A stretch of 64,000 nucleotides of DNA from Macrostomum lignano (Eukaryota): NCBI GenBank assembly GCA_002269645.1, contig NIVC01001659.1, positions 124,001-188,000 of the forward strand, given 5' to 3'. The notes beneath the pieces are model-generated. The model had not been told where the DNA came from, did not search any database, and worked only from the letters and a program-made list of their open reading frames with translations. Every line of letters begins with the position of its first letter. Position 1 is the first letter of the stretch. This document shows positions 8,563-23,852 of this stretch, piece by piece. The position numbers and the translations under genes were made by a program.

Positions 8563-8811
8563 TAAGGTTGCGATTTCAGGGGCCGGTTTTAACCGGCTCT
8601 GTAATCGTGTTTAGCCGACGGGGCCGCCCCCTCCGCCCGTCTGTGCGTGCGGCCCGCGCGTGTGCATCCCTGCCGCAAGGTGGGGTGCTGGGTGCCGGCC
8701 GGCAGGCGGGGGTGTTGGGTTGGGGGTGGGCGGCGTCGGCCCCCTTTTATTTGTGCGCTCACGCTCTCTCGTGCGCGCTGCGGGAGCGCTTTGGCTCGTA
8801 AAATTTTTTTT
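8563..8811 (+). repeat. Ngaro split direct repeat A1 (249 bp)
   Basis: Identical by eye to 17295-17543. Confidence 0.95.
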
Positions 8812-8837
8812 TTTGCGACTATCTGGCTCTGGCTATC

Positions 8838-11800
8838 ATGCATCGTGTGGACCGACTAACAGTCAAACAACTCAAGAGTGAGCTGGGTAGCCGAGGCCTC
8901 TCAACCGCAGGCAATAAGTCGGCCTTGCAAGCCAGACTGAGACAACACGAGGGGCAGTCACAGCTTCAAGACGGCGGGACATCGGCATTGACATCGGCAT
9001 CGGCATCGCCCTGTGCGCAGGAGGAGCTCCAAGACCAAGGCCGGGACCCACGGGAGGCGGACCTGGACGGCGAGATTCGGCGGGCGCAGAAACGGCTGCA
9101 GCTCCTAGAGCTTCAAACACGCGAGCGAGAGCTTCGTGAACGCGCCGTCGTGACTGCTCGTACAGAATCAGGTGAGCAGCAGAATCTTTTCGCTGAACTT
9201 ATCAACCCAACAGGCCCCGTCAGCGCTAGAGCCAACCCCCGGCCGGTCGGGCAGCCGTGTCTACTCGTCAGAGACTTTGTCGATGATCTGTCAGGCCAGG
9301 CTGACGAGCTGCTCACCAGGGGCAGCTCTGGCGGCCTCGTGCTCAAGAAGTCGACGACCAAGCTGGACGGCTTGACAATTGGGCAGTGGTTCGCTGGCAG
9401 TATGAAGGTCCTGCTTCAGATACTTGAAGACACAGCGCCGCAGGTGACCAGCAAGGGCCAAGTGTACAGCACAACTGAGCAAGTCAAAGATTACGCCCAG
9501 TACAATGTCCAGGTGGCCGAGCTATTCGACAGATTCCCAGCGCACCGGGTGATCAGATTCGACCATGACTACCGCCAGCACCGCGCAGCCAACAGCCTTC
9601 GCTGGGGCAAAGACTGCGCCCAGATGTCGATCAGGCACCTGCTCAGCATTAAGACGGACCAGTACAATCAGACAGCCAAGCGAAACCAGCCTAGCAACAA
9701 GAGCCGCGTCATGGGTCCGCGGACATCCTCAGGCCGCGAGCTGTGCTTGTCCTTCAACAGCACCTGTCAAGTCGCGCCCAGTAAACGATGACAAGGCCGC
9801 CCGTGGGCTTGGTTTGAGTCAAGTACGAAGTTGTGTATTTGAGATGAGCGAATTATTGCAATGATTGTGAGATACGAGGTGGTAGGTGGCGAGACCAATA
9901 TATAGGCTTAAAAGACAACAAGTAAGTGGGCTTAAAACTCAGAATCGATCACTACTGAATATTATCATGTCAAGGGGGAGAGAGAGAAAAAGTACGCAGA
10001 GCAGCGTACACCGGAGTAGGCCGGTTTGGTTAGTTAGGCTGGCTGGCTAGTTAGAGTTACTCATAATTGGACTCAGGTGAGTCAGGTGCAGTGCAGTACA
10101 TCAAAACACGCCCGGCACCTCATCTCCCCCCTTCGAATCGCAACGGGGGCACGCCTCGATTCGCTCGGAGGTTGTAGCTCGGTCTCTGAGCCGTAGTCGC
10201 CTTGTCAGTTCCGGCTCTGCTCTCCGCTAAGCGGTTGTGGCCACCGGACTCGGGAGTACTCGGGACTGAGCTCGCCGCCGGCTGGTTCTCCACCTGCTCT
10301 GACGTGGCCGAGACCGGAGGTCCGTCGCTGCCGGGCGTCACTGTTGGCAGGTCGGCGGGCTTCGCCGCCCCCTCGGAGCGGAGGTTGCCGTTCAGGTCGG
10401 TTGTCGCAGTCGCGCCGCCCTCATTGTTGTCAGGCTCGTGTCGCCGAAGTTGGTCAAGGTGGGCGAGTGTGACTCTGTTGCCTTGTCGCACGATCAGCGC
10501 CGTGTTGGATCCCTTCTGCGCTAGGAATTCTGCCTTCTCCGGGATCGCGCCTCTCCTTGGGGCGTACCACACCTCGGACCGGATTGCTGTTCTCATGGTG
10601 ATGGGGTTCCGCAGCTGCCTGCCCATCAGCTGCGCTGGACTGAACTCTCTTCCGGCATGCGGCACGCATCGGTAGTTTAGCAGAATCCGCGCGAGGAACG
10701 CGTCGTACGACTCCTGCTGGTCCCAGCCCGCCGAGGCCACCTTGATCGTCTGCACCATGCGCTCAGCCAGGCCGTTCGACTGGGGGTGGTATGGCGGAGT
10801 TTTCACAGCGCGGCAGCCAATTCTGCTCAGCCAACTCACCAACCCTTCATCATGAAATTCAGCAGCATTGTCACTCACCAGGGTTCGTGGAACTCCATTG
10901 CGGGCGAAGACCTCCTGGAGGACCTTCCTGACGGTCGCGGCGCTCTTGTCCGGCACTCGGACGGCCTCCGGCCAGGCGGACATGGCGTCGACCAGGACCA
11001 GCAGGAGCCCGACCTTTGGGACGTGAGCGTGGTCCATGTGGACGCGTCCCCAGGGTTCAGAGTCGGCCGGCCATTGATGGACGCTGCTGTGGCCGCTTTG
11101 GCGTTGCTTGGCGCAGGTGTGGCAGGCACGGACGAATCCTTCCACGTCGCCGCAGTAGCCTGGCCACCAGACGGAGTTGCGGACCAGCGCTCGTGTGCTC
11201 GAGGCACCGGGGTGCGCCCCGCTGTGTACCAACTCCAGGACGCGGCTTCGCAAAGACGAGGGAATGACTGGCCGGTCTCCGTAGCACACTACCGAGTCGT
11301 CTATTGTAAGCGCGTGACGAATTGCCTTGAAGGGCCGCTCTGCAGGGGAGCAGCCCGACCAGCGATTTCCGGCTATCCTGCGCATGACATCTGCTAGCAG
11401 CCTGTCACGTTTTGTCTCCTCTGCTAGCTCATTCCAACCAATGATGCTTTCACCAGCCCAATGCACCAGGTGGTGGTGGTGAGTCGCAGCTTCAGCCTGG
11501 TCGTCCGGAACGTCGGCAAAGTCGAGCCGGGAGAGCGCATCGGCGTGCGGAATTTGGGTTCCTCGGACGTACTCAATTGCGAAGTCGAACCCCATGAGGC
11601 GGATGGCCCAGCGAAGCAGTCGAGCGTTGGCGACCTTGGGGAGTTGTTGTCTTGTTCCAAACAGGAACTCTAGAGGGCGGTGGTCCGTTCGCAGTGTGAA
11701 ACGCTTGCCTAGAAGGAATTGTCGAGCCCTCTCCATCGCCCAAACAATCGCCAGAGCCTCCCGCTCGATGTTGGAGTAGCGCGCCTCCGCCTGTGTCAAT

Positions 11801-14492
11801 CGCCGGCTGAAGTAGATGACGGGGTGCCCTTCCTGCGTGAGCACGGCGGCCACCGCCTTTTCACTGGCGTCTGTCGTCAGCGTTGTCTCTTTGGCTCGGT
11901 CATAAGGCTGGATGATCGGGCCGGAGCTCAGCAGCTTCTTCAGCTGGTGGAAGGCCGCTTCTTGCGCAGCTCCCCACACAAACTCCGCTCCCTTCTTGCG
12001 CAGCTGGTTCAAAGGCTCGACAACGTGCGCATAGTTGTTGACAAACCTTCCGAAGAAATTGCAGAGACCAAGGAACGACTCTAACTGGCGACGGTCGCGT
12101 GGCGCGGAGATCTCCATGATTTTGCTGACCAGGCCGGGGTCTGGCGAGATTCCGTCTGCGCTGATTCTGTAGCCCAGGAACTTGACTGTCTTGGCCCCCA
12201 GGTTGGATTTGGCGAGATTTATATTCATGCCGGCCGCCTGTAGGGTCTTGATTACTTCATCAACTTTGGCCTTGATACCCTCGGCAGATTGACCTCCGAT
12301 AAGGATGTCGTCTTGATAAATGACCTTGCCGCTTACGTCCTCGAGGGTGGTCTCCATTGCCTTTTGAAAGATGGCGGATGCTGACTTGAGGCCAGGCACT
12401 AGTCGGGTGTAGCGGAACAGCCCTAAAGGAGTTGCAATCGTGGTGACCTCCCTGCTCTTCTCCTCGAGCTCGATCTGTAAGTAGGCGTCAGATAGGTCGA
12501 GAGTGGCAAAGTCAGTCATTCCGGCAACGTCCGAGAAGATCGTTTCGACGGTTGGCATGGGGTAGGTGTCCCCGCACACCTGATGGTTGACCCCCGCTTT
12601 GTAGTCGGCGCAAATTCTGACATTGCCATTAGGTTTTAGGACGCAGACGATCGGGGACGCCCATTCGCTGCCGCCCTCCGTCACTGGCTCGATGATGCCC
12701 TCAGTCACGAGACGCTTTAGCTCCTGATTGACGCGGTCACGCAGGTGCAGCGGCACTGCTCTGGCTGCGCAGTAGAAAGGCTTGGCACCCTCAATCAGCT
12801 TGATCCTGGCCTGGAAGCCTTTCAGACAATCGAGATGTTGAACTACGGAATCCTGAGCACTGGCTGCCTGGCCTTCGGGTTCCAATCCAGATTGTCAAGA
12901 CCCAGCAGTCCATGTGACTTGCGCGCTGCTGTGACCACCAAGTCGACTGTGCGGAACTTTTCTTGGTCATCCCACGTGGCAGTGAACTCTCCCAGGGTTC
13001 TTATGATCGATCCGTCGAACTGTCTCAGAATTCGTCTGGATTTCCTCAGTGCTGGGCATCCAAGTGTCTCCCAGTGGCCCCGTGGAATGAGACTCACATC
13101 AGCGCCCGTGTCTACCTGCATTTGCAGCTCCTTGCCGTTGATTTTGACCTGCCGGAAGATGCCGTTCCGCACTCTGCGCTCCGGTCTGATGACGAAGACG
13201 TTGGCGGTATCTCGCTCCATCTCGGCGCCTTCGTTCTCCTCCCAGGTCTCTAGATGCACGGTGCGGGACCTGCATACGGCAGCGAAGTGGTTTTTCTTGT
13301 TGCAGGCGGTGCACCGCTTGCCGAACGCAGGGCATGCGCCTTGCTGGTGCAAACCGCCGCAATATTGGCACTTCGTCTTGCTGATGTTCCTCGGTGGTCT
13401 GGTGTCCGGCGCTGGCTGTGGGGGCGTGCCGCGCCGCCCTGCATAGGCGATGCTGGCCTCGGTGTTGGCAGCGGCCCCGGTGCTGGTGTTGTAGCAGCGG
13501 ATTTGCTCAAGTTGCTCAAGTGTTTGCAGCACCTCGTTCAGCAGCATGTCGGTAGCTTGCATTCTCTCCAACAGTCTATGTTTGTGGTCCACAGAGGCGA
13601 GTCCGTCCACGAGCCGCATGGTGATGAGCTCGTCCTCGCTTGACTGTTTCGTCCCGAGCTTCTCAAAGCTACACGTAGCCGCTGCTGCACGGAGTCGGCG
13701 GTAGTAGGAGGCGACACTTTCGCTTGGGTCCTGCCTGAGGGCGAGGAATTTTGCTCGTTCGGCAATATCGAGGCGCTTCTTGGGCCGGATTGTCTCCTTG
13801 ATGATGTCTCGAATTTGTTCAAATGTTTTTTCCTCCAGGCTGGTCGGGGCAGCCATGAGGGACAGCGTTCTCAGTGCCTTGAGACCTGCCCTGGCGAGGA
13901 ATAGATCGGTGATCTGCCGATCTTCTTCTGTGTCCGTCAGTTTCTTGGTTCGTGCGGCAGCCGCAAAGCTGAGCAGCCAGGCTTCGGCTGTGTCTGGGTC
14001 ATCCAAGTTTAGTTCGGAGTTGTTTGCTTGCGACGCCATTGTCAAGTCGCGCCCAGTAAACGATGACAAGGCCGCCCGTGGGCTTGGTTTGAGTCAAGTA
14101 CGAAGTTGTGTATTTGAGATGAGCGAATTATTGCAATGATTGTGAGATACGAGGTGGTAGGTGGCGAGACCAATATATAGGCTTAAAAGACAACAAGTAA
14201 GTGGGCTTAAAACTCAGAATCGATCACTACTGAATATTATCATGTCAAGGGGGAGAGAGAGAAAAAGTACGCAGAGCAGCGTACACCGGAGTAGGCCGGT
14301 TTGGTTAGTTAGGCTGGCTGGCTAGTTAGAGTTACTCATAATTGGACTCAGGTGAGTCAGGTGCAGTGCAGTACATCAAAACACGCCCGGCACCTCAGCA
14401 CCAACGGCTGCATGAGGAGCAACTGCCGATTCCTCCATGCCTGCCGAATCTGTGAGGGCAGCCACTCCGAGCAAAATCACGCAAAAAACTGA
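8838..14492 (+). CDS. Ngaro ORF1 (gag-like; N-terminal SAP, C-terminal CCCH/CCH zinc finger), split by Gypsy: 8838-9764 + 14403-14492
   Basis: Removing the Gypsy and one TSD copy restores ELCLSFNST|NGCMRSNCRFLHACRICEGSHSEQNHAKN* in frame. Confidence 0.9.
9765..10122 (-). repeat. Gypsy 3' LTR
   Basis: Identical to 14040-14397. Confidence 0.97.
10120..12885 (-). CDS. Gypsy pol (RT-RNase H-integrase)
   Basis: VRICADYK, YQDDILI, TDASEKAVAAVL, integrase HSGAHPG...CHTC, RVHMD, LVSDNA, SNGLAERMVQTIK. Confidence 0.95.
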   Translation of the reverse strand: MEPEGQAASAQDSVVQHLDCLKGFQARIKLIEGAKPFYCAARAVPLHLRDRVNQELKRLVTEGIIEPVTEGGSEWASPIVCVLKPNGNVRICADYKAGVNHQVCGDTYPMPTVETIFSDVAGMTDFATLDLSDAYLQIELEEKSREVTTIATPLGLFRYTRLVPGLKSASAIFQKAMETTLEDVSGKVIYQDDILIGGQSAEGIKAKVDEVIKTLQAAGMNINLAKSNLGAKTVKFLGYRISADGISPDPGLVSKIMEISAPRDRRQLESFLGLCNFFGRFVNNYAHVVEPLNQLRKKGAEFVWGAAQEAAFHQLKKLLSSGPIIQPYDRAKETTLTTDASEKAVAAVLTQEGHPVIYFSRRLTQAEARYSNIEREALAIVWAMERARQFLLGKRFTLRTDHRPLEFLFGTRQQLPKVANARLLRWAIRLMGFDFAIEYVRGTQIPHADALSRLDFADVPDDQAEAATHHHHLVHWAGESIIGWNELAEETKRDRLLADVMRRIAGNRWSGCSPAERPFKAIRHALTIDDSVVCYGDRPVIPSSLRSRVLELVHSGAHPGASSTRALVRNSVWWPGYCGDVEGFVRACHTCAKQRQSGHSSVHQWPADSEPWGRVHMDHAHVPKVGLLLVLVDAMSAWPEAVRVPDKSAATVRKVLQEVFARNGVPRTLVSDNAAEFHDEGLVSWLSRIGCRAVKTPPYHPQSNGLAERMVQTIKVASAGWDQQESYDAFLARILLNYRCVPHAGREFSPAQLMGRQLRNPITMRTAIRSEVWYAPRRGAIPEKAEFLAQKGSNTALIVRQGNRVTLAHLDQLRRHEPDNNEGGATATTDLNGNLRSEGAAKPADLPTVTPGSDGPPVSATSEQVENQPAASSVPSTPESGGHNRLAESRAGTDKATTAQRPSYNLRANRGVPPLRFEGGR
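12843..14039 (-). CDS. Gypsy gag-protease
   Basis: ATG at 14039 (MASQANN); CQYCGGLHQQGAC and CTACNKKNHFAAVC knuckles; aspartic protease QVDTGADVSLI. Confidence 0.95.
   Translation of the reverse strand: MASQANNSELNLDDPDTAEAWLLSFAAAARTKKLTDTEEDRQITDLFLARAGLKALRTLSLMAAPTSLEEKTFEQIRDIIKETIRPKKRLDIAERAKFLALRQDPSESVASYYRRLRAAAATCSFEKLGTKQSSEDELITMRLVDGLASVDHKHRLLERMQATDMLLNEVLQTLEQLEQIRCYNTSTGAAANTEASIAYAGRRGTPPQPAPDTRPPRNISKTKCQYCGGLHQQGACPAFGKRCTACNKKNHFAAVCRSRTVHLETWEENEGAEMERDTANVFVIRPERRVRNGIFRQVKINGKELQMQVDTGADVSLIPRGHWETLGCPALRKSRRILRQFDGSIIRTLGEFTATWDDQEKFRTVDLVVTAARKSHGLLGLDNLDWNPKARQPVLRIP
14040..14397 (-). repeat. Gypsy 5' LTR
   Basis: Identical to 9765-10122. Confidence 0.97.
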
Positions 14493-17128
14493 GCAAGCGC
14501 GCCGACACGGCGCGCGAAACCGATTTTACCCCTCCTGCTTTTAACTGCCTTGCTCAGCCCGCTCCCGTGCCCTGCATCGTCAAGCCTCCAGTGCGGATGT
14601 CCGATCTGACGCAGCCAGTGGGCGATCTCTGCATCGACGCCTGGCGCTCCGAGCTTGTGGGCGACCCCGACGCTGATTTTATTCTCGACGGCATCGAGAG
14701 CGGCTTCTCCATTGTCGATGATTTCGACTTTACGCCGTGTCTCTGCAGCAACTACCAGTCCGCCAACCGGAATCGCGACCAAGTCCAAGCTGTTATCGGT
14801 GAAGAAATCCGGCTCGGGAGGTACGTCCCAGTCGTGGACAAGCCTGCGATGGTCTGTCCGCTGGGAGCCATTCCGAAAGACAGCTCCGGCATCCGGCTAA
14901 TCCATGATTGCTCCGTCCCTCGCGGCTGCAGCCTGAACGATCACTATGCCCAACAACGGCGTCTCCGCTTCACCTCCGTCGACGAGGCCGTCAGGATGAT
15001 GCAGCCCGGCTGGTTTATGGCAAAGGTGGACATCGCGTCAGCCTACCGCAGCGTGCCAATTTCTCCGCAGTGCTACCAAGCCACCGGCATCCACTGGGAC
15101 TTCGGCAATGGCTGCTCAACCTTCCTGGTGGATACGCGGTTACCATTCGGCAGCAGAGCCTCCGTCAGCATTTTCCATCGCCTCACGCAAGCGGCCCGGC
15201 GAATGATGTGTCGCAAGGGGTTCCTGGCAACCGTCGTTTTCATCGATGACTTCCTCGTCATGGCCAGGACGAAAGCCGAGTGTGACAGGGCCTACCACGA
15301 GCTGCGCAACCTGCTCACCAGGCTTGGCTTCACCATCAACGAGAAAAAGTCGGTGCCGCCGACGACAAAGCTGCGATTCCTCGGCATTGACATCGACACC
15401 GTGCAAGCCAGTCTTTCCTTCCCAGCCGACAAAGCCGAAAAGCTTCAGCTTCTCCTTGACACCTGCCTCTCGCGGAGGAGCCTGTGCAAGGCGGAACTGC
15501 AGAAGCTGCTCGGGCACCTCAGCCACTTGTGCACTGCCGCCCAGCACGGGCGAACTTTCCTGCGGCCGCTGATCGAGCTGGTCAACAGCCTGGCGCATCC
15601 GTCCGACAGGGTCGGCGTCACGGAGGAGCTCCAGTCGCAGCTGAGGTGGTGGATGAACGCGTTGAGCACGCTGCCGCCTAGAGCTGCCTGGCCCTCGCGT
15701 CGGCCGGCTGGAGCGATTGAGTCTGACGCCTGTGACATTGGAGGCGGTGCTGTGCTGCATTTCGTCGACAGAGAACCGGTTTGGCTCTACATCGACTGGC
15801 AGTCCGACTGTGATGGCGCGTTCAAGGAGCTGCACATCAACCTCAAGGAGTGCGCCGCCCCGCTGGTTGCGATTCTGCAGCACCAAGAAGCCTTCAGCGG
15901 CTGCTCGGTTGCAGTCTACACTGACAGCACCGCCGCCTGCGGCATCATTAACTCGGGTTCCGCCAAGCACCAAGGTATTGCCGACCTGCAGAAGCGCGTC
16001 GCCCTGACCTGCATTCAACGCGACATCATCGTCCGCGCGCACCATGTGCCTGGCCGCTTCCAGCTGCTCGCAGACCCGCTGTCCAGAGCGCATGACCCCA
16101 GCCAGCTTGCCAACTTTCTGTTTCGCTTCTATGGCACCTGCTATGTGCCAACCAGCTTGCTTGCCTCCGCTTGCTTGAGCTCTGCCGCTGCCTCCCACCT
16201 TCTGTTTCAGGTCCGCCTCCTGTGGTCCCGGTTCCCGGCCTCTCCGCACCGGCACGTCGACTGCTCAGCCAAGGCTTCGCCAGCTCAACTCGCTCCGCCT
16301 ACGCCAGCCAGTGCGCGTCCTGGATGCGATTCTGCGCCGCCCACAGACTTCAACCGCTGTCAGCGCAGCCCGCCGACGTGTGCAACTACCTGGCGGAGCT
16401 GGCGAACAACCGGCTGTTCTCAGTCAGCAGCCTATCCTGCCACCTCGCCGCCGTGTCCTGGCTCTACAAATCAAACAGCGTGGCTGACCCGACGAGGCAG
16501 CCACTGGTTCAGCTTGCCCTGCGCGGCGCCCGCCGGCTCCTCGGCGCCGCCCCAAGGAGCAAACGAGCGTTGCGGCCGGCCGACCTGCAGCGGCTGCACG
16601 GCGTGCTGCGACCTGAAGAGCCCAGGGACTGCGCATTCTGGTGCGCCTGCATCGTGGGCTGGTGGGCCATGCTGCGGCGAGCCAACCTGTGCGTATCCGG
16701 CCGGTTCGATCCGCAGCGAGACCTCAGTGCGAGCTGCATCCGGCCGTCAAGGGCGGGCGTCATCCTCGTCATTCCGAGGTCGAAGACCAACCAGTTCGGG
16801 GCGCGCCAGCACCGAGTTTTCTTGCCGCAGCTCCCAGACGGACATCCACTCTGCCCGGTCACCGCGCTCCAGAAGCAGCTGCGCATTAACCGACCGCAGG
16901 ACGTCCAGCATCACTTGTTCAGTACCCGAACCAGACGGTCCACCGCACCGCTCACCGCGCGCACCTTCGCGAGGCGCCTGTCCGCAGCACTTCGACAGGC
17001 CGGGTTCGCCGAGCCAGCCAGGTTCTCTGGGCACTCGTTGCGTCGAGGTGGCGCTACATCCGCGGCGGAGGCCGGCATCCCCATCGATTCAATCATGCGA
17101 GTCGGTGACTGGGCAAGCAGCGCTGTAG
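14456..17128 (+). CDS. Ngaro RT/RNase H ORF (no ATG start)
   Basis: LGAIPKDSSGIRLIHDCS, KVDIASAYR, LPFGSRAS, VFIDDFL, FLGIDID; RNase H ESDAC, HINLKE, YTDS, HVPGRFQLLADPLSR. Confidence 0.92.
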   Translation, partial: GQPLRAKSRKKLSKRADTARETDFTPPAFNCLAQPAPVPCIVKPPVRMSDLTQPVGDLCIDAWRSELVGDPDADFILDGIESGFSIVDDFDFTPCLCSNYQSANRNRDQVQAVIGEEIRLGRYVPVVDKPAMVCPLGAIPKDSSGIRLIHDCSVPRGCSLNDHYAQQRRLRFTSVDEAVRMMQPGWFMAKVDIASAYRSVPISPQCYQATGIHWDFGNGCSTFLVDTRLPFGSRASVSIFHRLTQAARRMMCRKGFLATVVFIDDFLVMARTKAECDRAYHELRNLLTRLGFTINEKKSVPPTTKLRFLGIDIDTVQASLSFPADKAEKLQLLLDTCLSRRSLCKAELQKLLGHLSHLCTAAQHGRTFLRPLIELVNSLAHPSDRVGVTEELQSQLRWWMNALSTLPPRAAWPSRRPAGAIESDACDIGGGAVLHFVDREPVWLYIDWQSDCDGAFKELHINLKECAAPLVAILQHQEAFSGCSVAVYTDSTAACGIINSGSAKHQGIADLQKRVALTCIQRDIIVRAHHVPGRFQLLADPLSRAHDPSQLANFLFRFYGTCYVPTSLLASACLSSAAASHLLFQVRLLWSRFPASPHRHVDCSAKASPAQLAPPTPASARPGCDSAPPTDFNRCQRSPPTCATTWRSWRTTGCSQSAAYPATSPPCPGSTNQTAWLTRRGSHWFSLPCAAPAGSSAPPQGANERCGRPTCSGCTACCDLKSPGTAHSGAPASWAGGPCCGEPTCAYPAGSIRSETSVRAASGRQGRASSSSFRGRRPTSSGRASTEFSCRSSQTDIHSARSPRSRSSCALTDRRTSSITCSVPEPDGPPHRSPRAPSRGACPQHFDRPGSPSQPGSLGTRCVEVALHPRRRPASPSIQSCESVTGQAAL
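14483..14515 (+). promoter_or_regulatory. Predicted -1 ribosomal frameshift signal (A AAA AAC + GC hairpin) linking Ngaro ORF1 to RT
   Basis: Heptamer at 14483-14489 immediately before the ORF1 TGA; 7-nt spacer; stem GCGCGCC/GGCGCGC at 14497-14515. The RT frame is -1 and open from 14456. Confidence 0.75.
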
Positions 17129-17199
17129 AGCGGTACCTACCGCCTTCGGTTGAGCGCGGTGCGCCGCTGCGCCTGGCTTCACTCCTCCCCTCAACGTGA
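16171..17199 (+). CDS. Ngaro tyrosine recombinase
   Basis: STRSAY...WMRFC N-terminal domain; catalytic residues R (MLRRANL), K (RSKTNQ), HSLRRGG, GDW and Y (VERYL). Confidence 0.93.
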   Translation: MLELCRCLPPSVSGPPPVVPVPGLSAPARRLLSQGFASSTRSAYASQCASWMRFCAAHRLQPLSAQPADVCNYLAELANNRLFSVSSLSCHLAAVSWLYKSNSVADPTRQPLVQLALRGARRLLGAAPRSKRALRPADLQRLHGVLRPEEPRDCAFWCACIVGWWAMLRRANLCVSGRFDPQRDLSASCIRPSRAGVILVIPRSKTNQFGARQHRVFLPQLPDGHPLCPVTALQKQLRINRPQDVQHHLFSTRTRRSTAPLTARTFARRLSAALRQAGFAEPARFSGHSLRRGGATSAAEAGIPIDSIMRVGDWASSAVERYLPPSVERGAPLRLASLLPST

Positions 17200-17223: not shown

Positions 17224-17700
17224 GGACTCGTTTCGTCCGCTGCCTTTGTCGCCACGCCTGTGCCTTCCCTCTTGCTGCTTTTGGCCCTGTTGGCTAAGGT
17301 TGCGATTTCAGGGGCCGGTTTTAACCGGCTCTGTAATCGTGTTTAGCCGACGGGGCCGCCCCCTCCGCCCGTCTGTGCGTGCGGCCCGCGCGTGTGCATC
17401 CCTGCCGCAAGGTGGGGTGCTGGGTGCCGGCCGGCAGGCGGGGGTGTTGGGTTGGGGGTGGGCGGCGTCGGCCCCCTTTTATTTGTGCGCTCACGCTCTC
17501 TCGTGCGCGCTGCGGGAGCGCTTTGGCTCGTAAAATTTTTTTTATTAATTTTCTTCTAATGCTTTTATTCCGTTGCTTCGTGACTTCCCTTTTAATCGCC
17601 TCAAATCCTAAAATATATTCGCTATCGCAGGACTCGTTTCGTCCGCTGCCTTTGTCGCCACGCCTGTGCCTTCCCTCTTGCTGCTTTTGGCCCTGTTGGC
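17224..17700 (+). repeat. Ngaro 3' repeats B1 (17224-17294), A2 (17295-17543), 86-bp spacer, B2 (17630-17700)
   Basis: 71-bp B copies identical; A2 identical to A1. Confidence 0.95.
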
Positions 17701-17850
17701 TAATGATCGGTTGCATGTGCAGGGACTCACACGGCCTTATATGCAAACAGCAAATATGCGTACTTAGCAGGGCGAGCTCTGGATGAATTGTCTTTGTAAT
17801 TGCGCAATGCATACAGTGCTTCATTCTCTCTGGTGCTCAGTGTATTTTAA

Positions 17851-18781: not shown

Positions 18782-18928
18782 CGATTTGAGAAAGTGAGAT
18801 TGATTGATCGTAACTCATCATTTTGCATCCTTGAAACACTCACTTAATCTTTTTGCTTCATAAAATCATTTTTAATACATTATTGTTCTTTGACCCGGAC
18901 GTCACAATCCGGATATCGCAAAGCTTCA

Positions 18929-19277
18929 GAGCTTGTGTTTCAGAGCTTGTGTTTCGGAGCTTGTGTTTCGGAGCTTGTGTTTCAGAGCTTGTGTTTCGGA
19001 GCTTGTGTTTCGGAGCTTGTGTTTCGGAGCTTGTGTTTCGGAGCTTGTGTTTCGGAGCTTGTGTTTCAGAGCTTGTGTTTCGGAGCTTGTGTTTCAGAGC
19101 TTGTGTTTCAGAGCTTGTGTTTCGGAGCTTGTGTTTCGGAGCTTGTGTTTCGGAGCTTGTGTTTCGGAGCTTGTGTTTCGGAGCTTGTGTTTCGGAGCTT
19201 GTGTTTCAGAGCTTGTGTCTCGGAGCTTGTGTTTCGGAGCTTGTGTTTCGGAGCTTGTGTTTCGGAGCTTGTGTTTC
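18929..19277. repeat. 14-bp tandem repeat (gagcttgtgtttc[g/a]), ~25 copies
   Basis: Directly visible. Confidence 0.95.
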
Positions 19278-19380
19278 TTTGATAGGATTATTTGCTTTTT
19301 TCTGTTTCAACTATCCGTAAAAGCAAAGGTAGTTCTTTCTCCCAGTTTGACGTGCGTTTTAGCGACACAAGCGCGCTTAT

Positions 19381-19560
19381 GCACTTCTGCCAATGCATGC
19401 TTATGCCAGCATGGAGCTCTGCGCACTTCTGCCAATGCATGCTTATGCCAGCATGGAGCTCTGCGCACTTCTGCCAATGCATGCTTATGCCAGCATGGAG
19501 CTCTGCGCACTTCTGCCAATGCATGCTTATGCCAGCATGGAGCTCTGCGCACTTCTGCCA
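19381..19560. repeat. 42-bp tandem repeat, ~4.3 copies
   Basis: Unit gcacttctgccaatgcatgcttatgccagcatggagctctgc. Confidence 0.95.
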
Positions 19561-20136
19561 CTTCAGTTGCCTGCAGTCAATACGCGCCAATGTGCATGGC
19601 GCTAATTCAGTCTTCCCCAGCCACAGTGAGGCGCAAGTCCAAAATGCTGGCTGGGCGCTCGCTGTCGGTGAGACGGCGTGAGCTAATCGAAAAAATTTTT
19701 CCAATTCGCATTGATGCTGACTATAAAGCTGAGAGGGCTTGTGCTAACTCTCAGATGCTGGCAGAAATGAATTTCTTATTGGCATTCCAGCTCTGATTGG
19801 TCATTGGGCTGACAGCGACCTCATGCTCGCGTGTAAAAAGTTCGACTTCTCAAGTCTTCAATACCGGTCATAAAACAGAAATGCACCGTGCTACTTGATG
19901 ACAGCAACTCACCGACCTGCCCGAATGGCGTCCAGAAATCGACAAATCCAAGCAGAAAAAGCGACAGCAGCAGCTGTACTCACTCAATAACTAACTCCGC
20001 CAAAAACTTATCCTGTCATTCGCTGAGAACATCTTAAATAACCAGCGAAGTTTTCCGTCAAATCCCTCTGCCAGTTTCAGAAACGTATTTTCCCTTTCAA
20101 GTCTTGCCCGTCCAATCTGCGTGGCGATGTAAAAAA

Positions 20137-20825
20137 CCTGCCAGTCCTACCATAGAGTGCTGCTTCTCCCTGCCAGTCCTAACATAGAGTGCCGCTACTC
20201 CCTGCCAGTCCTACTACAGAGTGCCGCTACTCCCTGCCAGTCCTACCACAGAGTGCTGCTTCTCCCTGCCAGTCCTACCACAGAGTGCCGCTACTCCCTG
20301 CCAGTCCTACCACAGAGTGCCGCTACTCCCTGCCAGTCCTACCACAGAGTGCCGCTACTCCCTGCCAGTCCTACCACAGAGTGCCGCTACTCCCTGCCAG
20401 TCCTACCACAGAGTACCGCTACTCCCTGCCAGTCCTACCACAGAGTGCCGCTACTCCCTTCCAGTCCTACATGTACCATAGAGTACCGCTACTCCCTGCC
20501 AGTCCTACCACAGAGTGCCGCTACTCCCTTCCAGTCCTACATGTACCATAGAGTACCGCTACTCCCTGCCAGTCCTACATGTACCATAGAGTGCTGCTAC
20601 TCCCTTCCAGTCCTACCACAGAGTGCCGCTACTCCCTTCCAGTCCTACCACAGAGTGCCGCTACTCCCTGCCAGTCCTACCATAGAGTGCCGCTACTCCC
20701 TGCCAGTCCTACCACAGAGTGCCGCTACTCCCTGCCAGTCCTACCATAGAGAGTACCGCTACTCCCTGCCAGTCCTAGCATAGAGTACCGCTACTCCCTG
20801 CCAGTCCTACCACAGAGTGCCGCTA
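20137..20825. repeat. 32-bp minisatellite, ~21 copies
   Basis: Unit cctgccagtcctaccacagagtgccgctactc. Confidence 0.95.
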
Positions 20826-22272
20826 ATAAAGTTTTGGAAACCAGTCTCTGCACCAGTCACAATTTTGTACGATAAATCTTTTCGTAGCAAATAGAAAGGA
20901 TTAAGTTGATTGATTAAGTTGATAGAAAGGACTCAATTGCTTTTTAAAGTATTTTTCATAATATCTTCTACGAGCATTACAGGTGGATCTCGCCATGTGG
21001 ATACTCTAACTGGAGGGTTGGACAACAATTAATATATATATATAGAGATTTGAACATGCGGTTCAGCTATAATTTGAACTGCGTGACCTTGGCGCCTCCC
21101 TGAACAGCCCTGGGACATCAGCAGTGCGAGCCTTGCTCTCTCACTGTCTAAAAAAGTAATGACGACAGCCCCCCATCAGCTGTGGCCTGTAGATAGCCAG
21201 TGCCAGAGTTTTTATTTTGATTTAAAGGTCAAGAGGATTTGTTTTGTTATTTCTGGAGATGCAATCTCTCTGCATGCTGAGTAACTCGGCGCGTCCGTGC
21301 AAACCATTCTGCTGCAGGGTGACCATTTTGCCTTTTCTAAGCCTTTTGAAGCAATGCTTGCTCGTGTGAGCCACGTTTTATCTTATCTTATTACCCTGCT
21401 ATCGGCTCCTTTTGATACAAAGAAGTCCGCATCCGGCAAGTTTTCGCTGTAATGACTGTCGCCTAAATAGAAATAATGTGTGCTTTTTTATACATATGAG
21501 GTAAAAAACAGTTAAACAAAAACAAAGACGCGTATTAACCACTAAACTCACTGAAACTGCAATTGTGAACCAAGACTACATGTAACTAATATATTCTAAC
21601 AATATCAGTCCATACTAATGGTAGTAATAAGGGTCAAGCAAAGAAAATCTTTATTTTTAATCTGAAGTAGAAATTCCTCCCTAAACACTGCTTAGCAAAC
21701 TTTCTGATCTCAGTCATTTTATCTAATCATTTTATTTGTACTTTTACACAGAATGTGCCAATAACTCAGTCGATTCTACAGTACTATTGCTCATTTTCTT
21801 TTCGTTCTACGAGTGTATAAGTTAAAAGATTGCTTCAATTGGATTCCCACTTGAATTCCAATCGTATTCTTAGTCCAGTAATTTCAGAGTCCATCCATGC
21901 ACCGCCACTGAGAGGATGCGCTGGTGAGGCAAGCCAGCAGCTGAGAGCGCGACTGCACCAGCATGACAAGTGCATGCGCCGGGTCGGGGCTGGCAGAATG
22001 AGCACGCTGGCTAATGGGTACTCTGGGCTGAAAGCCTCACAACTGAGCGGCTCTTCTGCTTCTGCAGCAGCTTATATAAATTTATACAACTATTGGATAT
22101 TAAAACGGGATTAAAAAATTATATGTGTATATTTGACGCTGGCTGATTGGCCAGTTATGAAAACTATTGCTCAGTCTTCTGGCCTTGTGGGACGCTAAAT
22201 GCAGCAGCACGAGTCCGCTGCGTGATCCCCCCCCCCCCTGTTTGCTGTGGCTTCTGGCCCTCCTCTGCCCAG

Positions 22273-23392
22273 CAATGGTAGATTGTGTGTCTGGTTTTGG
22301 AGGCAGACAATGGTAGATTGTGTGTATGGTTTTGGAGGCAGACAATGGTAGATTGTGTGTATGGTTTTGGAGGCAGACAATGGTAGATTGTGTGTCTGGT
22401 TTTGGAGGCAGACAATGGTAGATTGTGTGTATGGTTTTGGAGGCAGACAATGGTAGATTGTGTGTATGGTTTTGGAGGCAGATAATGGTAGATTGTGTGT
22501 ATGGTTTAGGAGGCAGACAATGGTAGATTGTGTGTATGGTTTTGGAGGCAGACAATGGTAGATTGTGTGTCTGGTTTTGGAGGCAGACAATGGTAGATTG
22601 TGTGTATGGTTTAGGAGGCAGACAATGGTAGATTGTGTGTATGGTTTTGGAGGCAGACAATGGTAGATTGTGTGTATGGTTTTGGAGGCAGACAATGGTA
22701 GATTGTGTGTCTGGTTTTGGAGGCAGACAATGGTAGATTGTGTGTATGGTTTAGGAGGCAGACAATGGTAGATTGTGTGTATGGTTTTGGAGGCAGACAA
22801 TGGTAGATTATGTGTATGGTTTAGGAGGCAGACAATGGTAGATTGTGTGTATGGTTTTGGAGGCAGACAATGGTAGATTGTGTGTATGGTTTTGGAGGCA
22901 GACAATGGTAGATTGTGTGTCTGGTTTTGGAGGCAGACAATGGTAGATTGTGTGTATGGTTTAGGAGGCAGACAATGGTAGATTGTGTGTATGGTTTTGG
23001 AGGCAGACAATGGTAGATTGTGTGTATGGTTTTGGAGGCAGACAATGGTAGATTGTGTGTATGGTTTTGGAGGCAGACAATGGTAGATTGTGTGTATGGT
23101 TTAGGAGGCAGACAATGGTAGATTGTGTGTATGGTTTTGGAGGCAGACAATGGTAGATTGTGTGTATGGTTTTGGAGGCAGACAATGGTAGATTATGTGT
23201 ATGGTTTAGGAGGCAGACAATGGTAGATTGTGTGTATGGTTTTGGAGGCAGACAATGGTAGATTGTGTGTCTGGTTTTGGAGGCAGACAATGGTAGATTG
23301 TGTGTATGGTTTAGGAGGCAGACAATGGTAGATTGTGTGTATGGTTTTGGAGGCAGACAATGGTAGATTGTGTGTCTGATTTTGGAGTCAGA
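22273..23392. repeat. 35-bp minisatellite, ~32 copies
   Basis: Unit caatggtagattgtgtgtatggttttggaggcaga. Confidence 0.97.
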
Positions 23393-23852
23393 AAATTTTC
23401 AAGCTGAATCAAATTTGCGTCTTCATTCTGTTTAACCGACTCCTGGCTGCCTCAGACACGAACATATTTAAGGCCACATTTTTTTGGTCCTAAGACCGCA
23501 ATGCTTCGTACTCATAAATATGTCAACTCATGTTTGCCAAGAGACAACATGATGAAGCAACAAACTCTTGACCCTAGCATTCAAGAACTCACTCAGCTCA
23601 GGTCCAATGCCAATTGCACCATCAATTAGTAGGTCAGTCAAATGCAAATTTGTGCTTGGACATGAGTAGCGGGAAGCTGAAATGCAAACATTCGATATCC
23701 ATACCATACCACAGCACCTGCATCACTGAGAACACAGTATAAGGTAGAAAGGCAGTCAGTGCATTCAGACTGATTTAAAGTATAAATCATGCCTCCATAC
23801 GCTCCATACCAGCTTCGTTCGCAACCATCTGCTTAATCTGCAGGTCAACCCT

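Follow-up and report, generated by a model that had tools for sequence, protein, structure and literature searches.

An in-register A AAA AAC heptamer between gag and pol of a Macrostomum lignano Ngaro retrotransposon: evidence for recoding into pol and splicing of the recombinase

How does a retrotransposon express a reverse transcriptase (RT) whose reading frame overlaps the end of gag and is offset from it? This question is raised by an element in Macrostomum lignano contig NIVC01001659.1 (assembly GCA_002269645.1), within a stretch of 64,000 nucleotides (nt) from position 124,001 to 188,000 of the forward strand, hereafter the window, in whose numbering all positions are given. Judging by its repeats and gene order, the element is a Ngaro tyrosine-recombinase retrotransposon. 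An earlier note, made from the sequence alone, had suggested that a Gag–RT–RNase H fusion arises here by −1 programmed ribosomal frameshifting (PRF). Our analysis supports this proposal on three grounds, namely the in-register conservation of the slippery heptamer, the matching of motif to frame in relatives from outside this genome, and the finding of no splice into pol in contigs where the recombinase splice is seen. The heptamer A AAA AAC is conserved in register and pol is read in −1; the fusion likely arises from −1 slippage of ribosomes on the heptamer, a reading whose probability we put at about 0.86.

The shift site and its conservation

The junction comprises the following features.

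14403–14492, + strand: 3′ end of gag, with the second half of a Cys/His zinc-finger-like motif and a Lys–Asn–stop terminus; uninterrupted in 12 close copies
14456–17128, + strand: pol frame (−1 relative to gag), with a linker, RT at about 14972–15391 and RNase H at about 15716–15961
14483–14489, + strand: slippery heptamer A AAA AAC, in register
14490–14496, + strand: gag stop codon (14490–14492) and 7-nt spacer
14497–14515, + strand: GC stem-loop, candidate stimulator, 8 bp with a 3-nt loop (ViennaRNA)
14597–14599, + strand: in-frame ATG upstream of RT, not kept in the sister subfamily

The gag terminus reads GCA AAA AAC TGA (14481–14492), with the heptamer directly ahead of the stop codon as the earlier note had described, and the open reading frames (ORFs) confirm its statement that the RT/RNase H frame is exactly −1 and open from 14456. 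The gag frame was traced by position, counting out an inserted long terminal repeat (LTR) element; since the codons following the target duplication (14400) continue the frame set by the gag ATG at 8838, the heptamer is in register. The site therefore combines an in-register X XXY YYZ, an open downstream frame in −1 and a spacer of 7 nt, against a norm of about 5–9 nt. The hairpin begins 7 nt past the heptamer, as had been noted, but instead of the reported 7 bp and 5-nt loop, ViennaRNA pairs 8 bp around 3 nt. The segment 14490–14530 folds at −16.7 kcal/mol (z = −3.15), and none of 200 shuffled sequences was equally stable. The two strands of the window contain 416 heptamers, of which one is followed by a stop codon and a perfect stem of at least 7 bp; no such combination arose in 300 shuffles of the element.

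Conservation within the genome was surveyed at 90 loci, of which 30 came from one search and 60 were picked by hand from the 116 hits beyond the first 31 so as to spread over families; 24 loci with no zinc-finger match (short, rearranged or divergent) were left out of the counts. The gag zinc-finger end could be recognised in 66 copies. In 59 of these, A AAA AAY stands in register at the stop codon or one codon earlier; they belong to 12 lineages whose RTs are 40–53% identical to that of the window element. Of the seven others, one is a point mutant, three contain an additional A and three belong to a lineage with an in-frame UGA. In the latter (cluster 16, L075–L077) pol lies in the gag frame behind CAC UGA CUC, a context present in three of four distinct copies; this readthrough-like junction, a single UGA followed by C, is nested among −1 lineages.

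A Lys–Asn–stop terminus is nearly universal in the genome, and the conserved end could thus reflect a C-terminus that Gag requires. However, the synonymous positions are fixed as well. The first A of the heptamer is a synonymous third position, and the background of A at third positions is 9–19%; the Lys codon is AAA, which accounts for 17–54% of Lys codons in the background. A naive product over 15 clusters, which overstates their independence, comes to 1e-21. Gag third positions near the heptamer vary freely, with 14–17 changes in 40 codons. This synonymous conservation largely refutes an explanation by protein sequence, to which we assign a negligible probability.

The earlier note gave the RT/RNase H frame no ATG start, but there is one in frame at 14597, ahead of the RT match. 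If ribosomes reinitiated or entered internally at this codon, or if a shorter transcript began ahead of it, pol could be made alone and the heptamer would be incidental. Within its own subfamily 10 of 11 copies have this ATG, but none of the six scorable copies in the sister subfamily does, and it is missing in 21 of the 52 copies with an open −1 frame. The positions of Met differ by lineage, and no Met stands between the heptamer and RT in six of 15 clusters; in cluster 12 the −1 frame is free of Met and open for 731–815 nt, with lengths differing by multiples of 3. A separate start would also leave the conserved synonymous A's unexplained, and we regard it as improbable, at the level of one chance in twenty or so.

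Changes in linker length keep the frame (L035, L036, L041, L047, L055–L058), the variants including an 11-residue tandem repeat in cluster 6 and steps of 12–36 nt in cluster 12. Fifteen of 16 clusters, stem-less lineages among them, have runs of TTTTA after the heptamer and before RT (14524–14545 in the window); 23 of 31 such runs are in the phase that encodes Phe in pol, and they may be a protein motif or an RNA element.

Junctions in outside relatives and the role of the hairpin

A profile scan of metagenome contigs yielded 80 outside loci; 21 of them had no zinc-finger match (short, rearranged or divergent) and were dropped, and the 59 scorable gag ends formed 54 clusters. Two scans of viral contigs returned no relatives. 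The p values given below treat related clusters as independent. An in-register heptamer was present in 25 of 31 clusters with pol in −1 and in only one of the 23 others (Fisher p = 9e-9), while in the two off-register phases of the −1 class heptamers occurred in only 1/31 and 2/31 clusters. G GGA AAC, G GGU UUU and U UUA AAC are also used in this register in the outside −1 class. UUU_CG was found in six of the eight clusters with pol in +1, always as CCN CGU UUU CGU just before the gag stop codon (L114, L124, L126, L132, L145, L152), and in none of the remaining 46 (p = 1e-6). In the 15 clusters with pol in the gag frame, a single UAG or UGA separates the two genes; UAA was used in none of them, compared with 20 of 39 clusters elsewhere (p = 3e-4). 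The contexts of these in-frame stops were UAG-G (8), UGA-C (3), UAG-C (2) and other (2), and no downstream structure shared by this class was found. Each pol frame is thus paired with a matching known signal, which we take as the best evidence for recoding as the source of a Gag–Pol fusion.

The outside junctions also bear on the two alternatives considered above. Outside heptamers lie 7–37 nt ahead of the gag stop codon, and the frame-0 and +1 classes do without a heptamer, neither of which fits a required Lys–Asn terminus. As regards a separate start, no Met was present between the gag stop codon and RT in 29 of 35 outside −1 loci.

In a quickly built RT tree without named reference sequences, the +1 class is a single group (support 82), and the −1 and stop classes are intermingled. 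The tree has 12 changes of junction class in all, at least four of which are forced by well-supported branches.

Several findings weigh against −1 slippage as we describe it. A Met at or before the RT match is present in nine of 15 clusters in the genome. The linker ahead of the ATG at 14597 has no third-position bias (10/9/11), a point in favour of a separate start, although this test is uninformative. Outside the genome, the strict heptamer is missing in six of the 31 −1 clusters, and UUU_CG in two of the eight +1 clusters. Moreover, the stem, judged by eye, is weak in cluster 12 and absent in clusters 5, 7, 11, 13 and 17; no compensatory change was found among seven related stem sequences, and sequences of the outside −1 class fold no better than expected (mean z −0.17; z below −2 in 3 of 25).

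A strong stem 4–8 nt past the heptamer was seen by eye in nine of the 15 −1 clusters of the genome (1–4, 6, 8, 9, 10 and 14). The joint conservation of heptamer and stem, which the earlier note had named as a check on its proposal, is therefore divided: the heptamer is kept (59/66), the stem only in some lineages. The stem-less lineages, the missing covariation and the missing folding excess outside speak against the stem as a universal stimulator, and it would be at most a lineage-specific one.

Splicing of the recombinase and the expression model

The tyrosine recombinase (YR) appears to be reached by another route, which involves the following features.

8838–9764, + strand: 5′ part of gag (ORF1), with a SAP domain and then a coiled-coil-like region (by eye); ATG at 8838, Pfam SAP E = 1.5e-12
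9168–9177, + strand: 5′ splice donor; exon ends at 9171, intron from 9172, phase 1 after 111 gag codons; joint in contigs on sister copy L109
16190–16210, + strand: pyrimidine tract and 3′ splice acceptor; intron ends at 16210, phase 1; signal and joint
16211–17199, + strand: YR exon, with no ATG ahead of the N-terminal domain; ORF 16096–17199, Pfam Phage_integrase and Phage_int_SAM

Eight of 24 listed runs were aligned to the intact copy L109; their division into RNA-like and DNA-like is a guess, none being on record as RNA. One GT..AG joint connects the 5′ part of gag, with the SAP domain, to YR (1410–3812 in L109, corresponding to window 9171 to 16211). It occurs in contigs of the RNA-like runs X1, X2 and X3, that is, three of six such runs, from two studies, and in neither of the two DNA-like runs (X15, X19). 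The joint was not seen in the RNA-like runs X5, X7 and X14; contigs drop rare forms, and the shorter side of the joint is only 24 letters. The flank control is weak, as the flanks of L109 are repeats, and only 395–788 separates X15, where it is covered, from X19, X3 and X14. A phase-1 acceptor, with a pyrimidine tract and YAG, precedes YR in 13 of 14 families (10–26 bits, leave-one-out); in family 9 the automatic pick took another AG (score −20), and an unscored site that fits the phase is visible. Most intact copies have a phase-1 G/GTRAG donor in the 5′ part of gag, a pattern not found in every family. One X2 contig runs from L109 4896 back to 807, from the 3′ repeat to the 5′ end; with 148 letters matching either side, this back-joint may be due only to the shared A repeat, or it may come from a circular or tandem form.

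Since the element does splice, pol might be reached in the same way, and T-rich runs with a CAG at 14557 are indeed present past the stem. However, 14557 is in phase 0 and the donor in use is in phase 1. No acceptor comparable to that of YR was found ahead of RT in any of 15 families, the best AG scoring at most 5.4 bits, and no joint into pol was present in the six RNA-like runs, with the limit that a minor pol splice may be lost from contigs that drop rare forms. The gag/pol junction is crossed by unbroken unspliced contigs in five of these runs (X1, X2, X3, X5, X7); X14 is fragmentary and does not bridge it. Splicing into pol is thus unsupported by contig joints, acceptor scores or phase, and we consider it very unlikely; an RT expressed from a spliced transcript, which by the earlier note would refute its proposal, did not appear in these contigs.

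The addition of an extra A to the A6 run by polymerase slippage during transcription would likewise yield an in-frame Gag–Pol mRNA. Seven A's occur in four of the 77 genomic copies with the run and five in none, but the A7 copies may be assembly or reverse-transcription errors. No indel at the A run was found in any RNA-like contig, from which, again, rare forms are dropped, and the outside heptamers G GGA AAC, G GGU UUU and U UUA AAC fit tRNA re-pairing rather than a homopolymer. Transcriptional slippage seems to us about as unlikely as a splice into pol. The genomic copies with A7 in the slippery run are L034, L071, L073 and L088.

We thus return to −1 slippage on A AAA AAC as the preferred account of pol. 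On unspliced RNA, most ribosomes would stop after Lys–Asn and release Gag (338 amino acids in the intact copy L109), while in a minority of cases the Lys/Asn tRNA pair would slip by −1, an event that the GC stem 7 nt further on may assist in this family, and translation would proceed across the variable linker into RT and RNase H. In the spliced RNA (donor 9171, acceptor 16210, both phase 1), everything from the remainder of gag through the shift site to pol is removed, and the predicted product joins Gag residues 1–111, with the SAP domain, to YR.

The remaining features of the element are as follows.

8563–8814, + strand: split direct repeat A1, 100% identical to 17295–17546
9765–14397, − strand: young Gypsy LTR element within gag; LTRs 9765–10122 and 14040–14397, target duplication 9760–9764 / 14398–14402
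17224–17703, + strand: 3′ repeats B1 (17224–17297), A2 (17295–17546) and B2 (17630–17703)

The repeats follow the pattern A1...B1 A2 B2, with two A copies of 252 nt and two B copies of 74 nt, each pair 100% identical. The Ngaro gene set is present, comprising a gag-like ORF1, an RT/RNase H ORF2 and a tyrosine recombinase ORF3 (Pfam RVT_1, Phage_integrase); the RT_RNaseH match (E = 4e-4) is below the Pfam cut-off. No Pfam match at E<=0.01 to a methyltransferase, protease or DDE integrase was obtained in the three Ngaro frames. In this family the pol frame runs on without a stop codon through nearly the whole YR gene (16130–17128), and in several other families it meets a stop codon soon after RNase H.

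The Gypsy element, whose interruption of ORF1 the earlier note overlooked, is 4633 bp long, with two identical 358-bp LTRs and a 5-bp target duplication. Because it splits gag, neither full Gag nor Gag–Pol can be made from the window copy; 12 further copies with 97–99% identity lack a Gypsy insertion at that position. The insertion also sits inside the spliced-out Ngaro intron. Its own gag-protease and RT-integrase frames are offset in the window copy. Over the stretch tested, most of its close sisters are one base longer, and the offset is therefore a break in one copy and not a signal. Elsewhere in the window, minisatellite arrays occupy 18855–19361 (14-bp unit), 19339–19590 (42 bp), 20084–20815 (32 bp) and 22133–23450 (35 bp).

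Comparison with known systems

The window layout agrees with that given for Ngaro in the available parts of PMC8547959, and the same order A1-gag-RT/RH-YR-B1A2B2 (RH, RNase H), with overlapping ORFs, is described for Ngaro, of the order DIRS, in the corresponding parts of PMC3783388 and PMC9210276. Poulter and Butler 2015, as quoted in PMC13003380, proposed that Ngaro elements frameshift at the RT/RH-to-YR junction. The earlier note knew of no demonstrated frameshifting in DIRS-order elements; frameshifting as such had been suggested in print for that overlap, while no gag–pol site was found. YR of the window element overlaps the pol frame in −1, yet a conserved acceptor and a GT..AG joint to the 5′ part of gag were found. 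These findings point to YR being reached by splicing, contrary to the printed proposal, and to frameshifting one junction earlier.

No description of a gag–pol shift site or a YR splice in Ngaro was found in the literature searched, although the founding papers outside that search (Goodwin and Poulter 2004; Poulter and Butler 2015) may mention gag–pol frameshifting. No gag–pol mechanism is given in the accessible sections of PMC8547959, PMC3783388, PMC6681497, PMC3266345, PMC9210276, PMC7192593, PMC4157794, PMC12477816 and bioRxiv 2022.06.16.496473, and DIRS or Ngaro is not mentioned in those of PMC5009743. The type of mechanism is familiar; the searched papers gave no instance of it in such elements, of junctions that change between three recoding modes, or of a recombinase reached by splicing.

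The expression of start-less overlapping ORFs in DIRS-order elements is largely untested, and exact shift and splice sites can now be given, with Gag–RT–RH and SAP-domain–YR as the predicted real proteins. ORF1 affects the insertion preference of Ngaro according to PMC8547959, and we suggest that a SAP–YR fusion could explain this effect. The outside junctions further indicate that natural recoding cassettes are numerous, with UUU_CGU +1 sites in retrotransposons among them.

Mouse mammary tumour virus and human T-lymphotropic virus use A_AAA_AAC at gag-pro, and gammaretrovirus-type gag-pol is expressed by stop-codon readthrough. One lineage of this genome and the 15 outside clusters resemble the latter in having a single in-frame UAG or UGA, but their stop contexts vary and share no downstream structure that we could find. 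According to PMC5009743, A_AAA_AAC belongs to the heptamers on which mammalian ribosomes shift most readily, and +1 shifting in influenza uses the cassette UCC_UUU_CGU (PMC5009743, PMC8310308). The outside Ngaro group with UUU_CGU in the gag frame and pol in +1 recalls PA-X of influenza A, with the differences that the context is CCN CGU UUU CGU and that it belongs to relatives and not to the window element.

The window element itself is closest to retroviral gag-pol −1 PRF, with its in-register X XXY YYZ, 7-nt spacer, GC stem and pol in −1, and it shares with retroviruses a third gene expressed from a singly spliced RNA. Unlike retroviruses, it has no protease, DDE integrase or env, its predicted spliced product is a Gag(SAP)–recombinase, and the stem is optional across lineages. 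We think it probable, with less confidence than for the −1 shift itself, that Ngaro elements follow the complete expression plan of a simple retrovirus, with Gag, Gag–Pol by recoding and a spliced Gag(SAP)–recombinase, and that across the superfamily the mode of recoding at the gag–pol junction, be it −1 slippage, UAG/UGA readthrough or influenza-type +1 shifting at UUU_CGU, has changed repeatedly, often with no stimulatory RNA structure.

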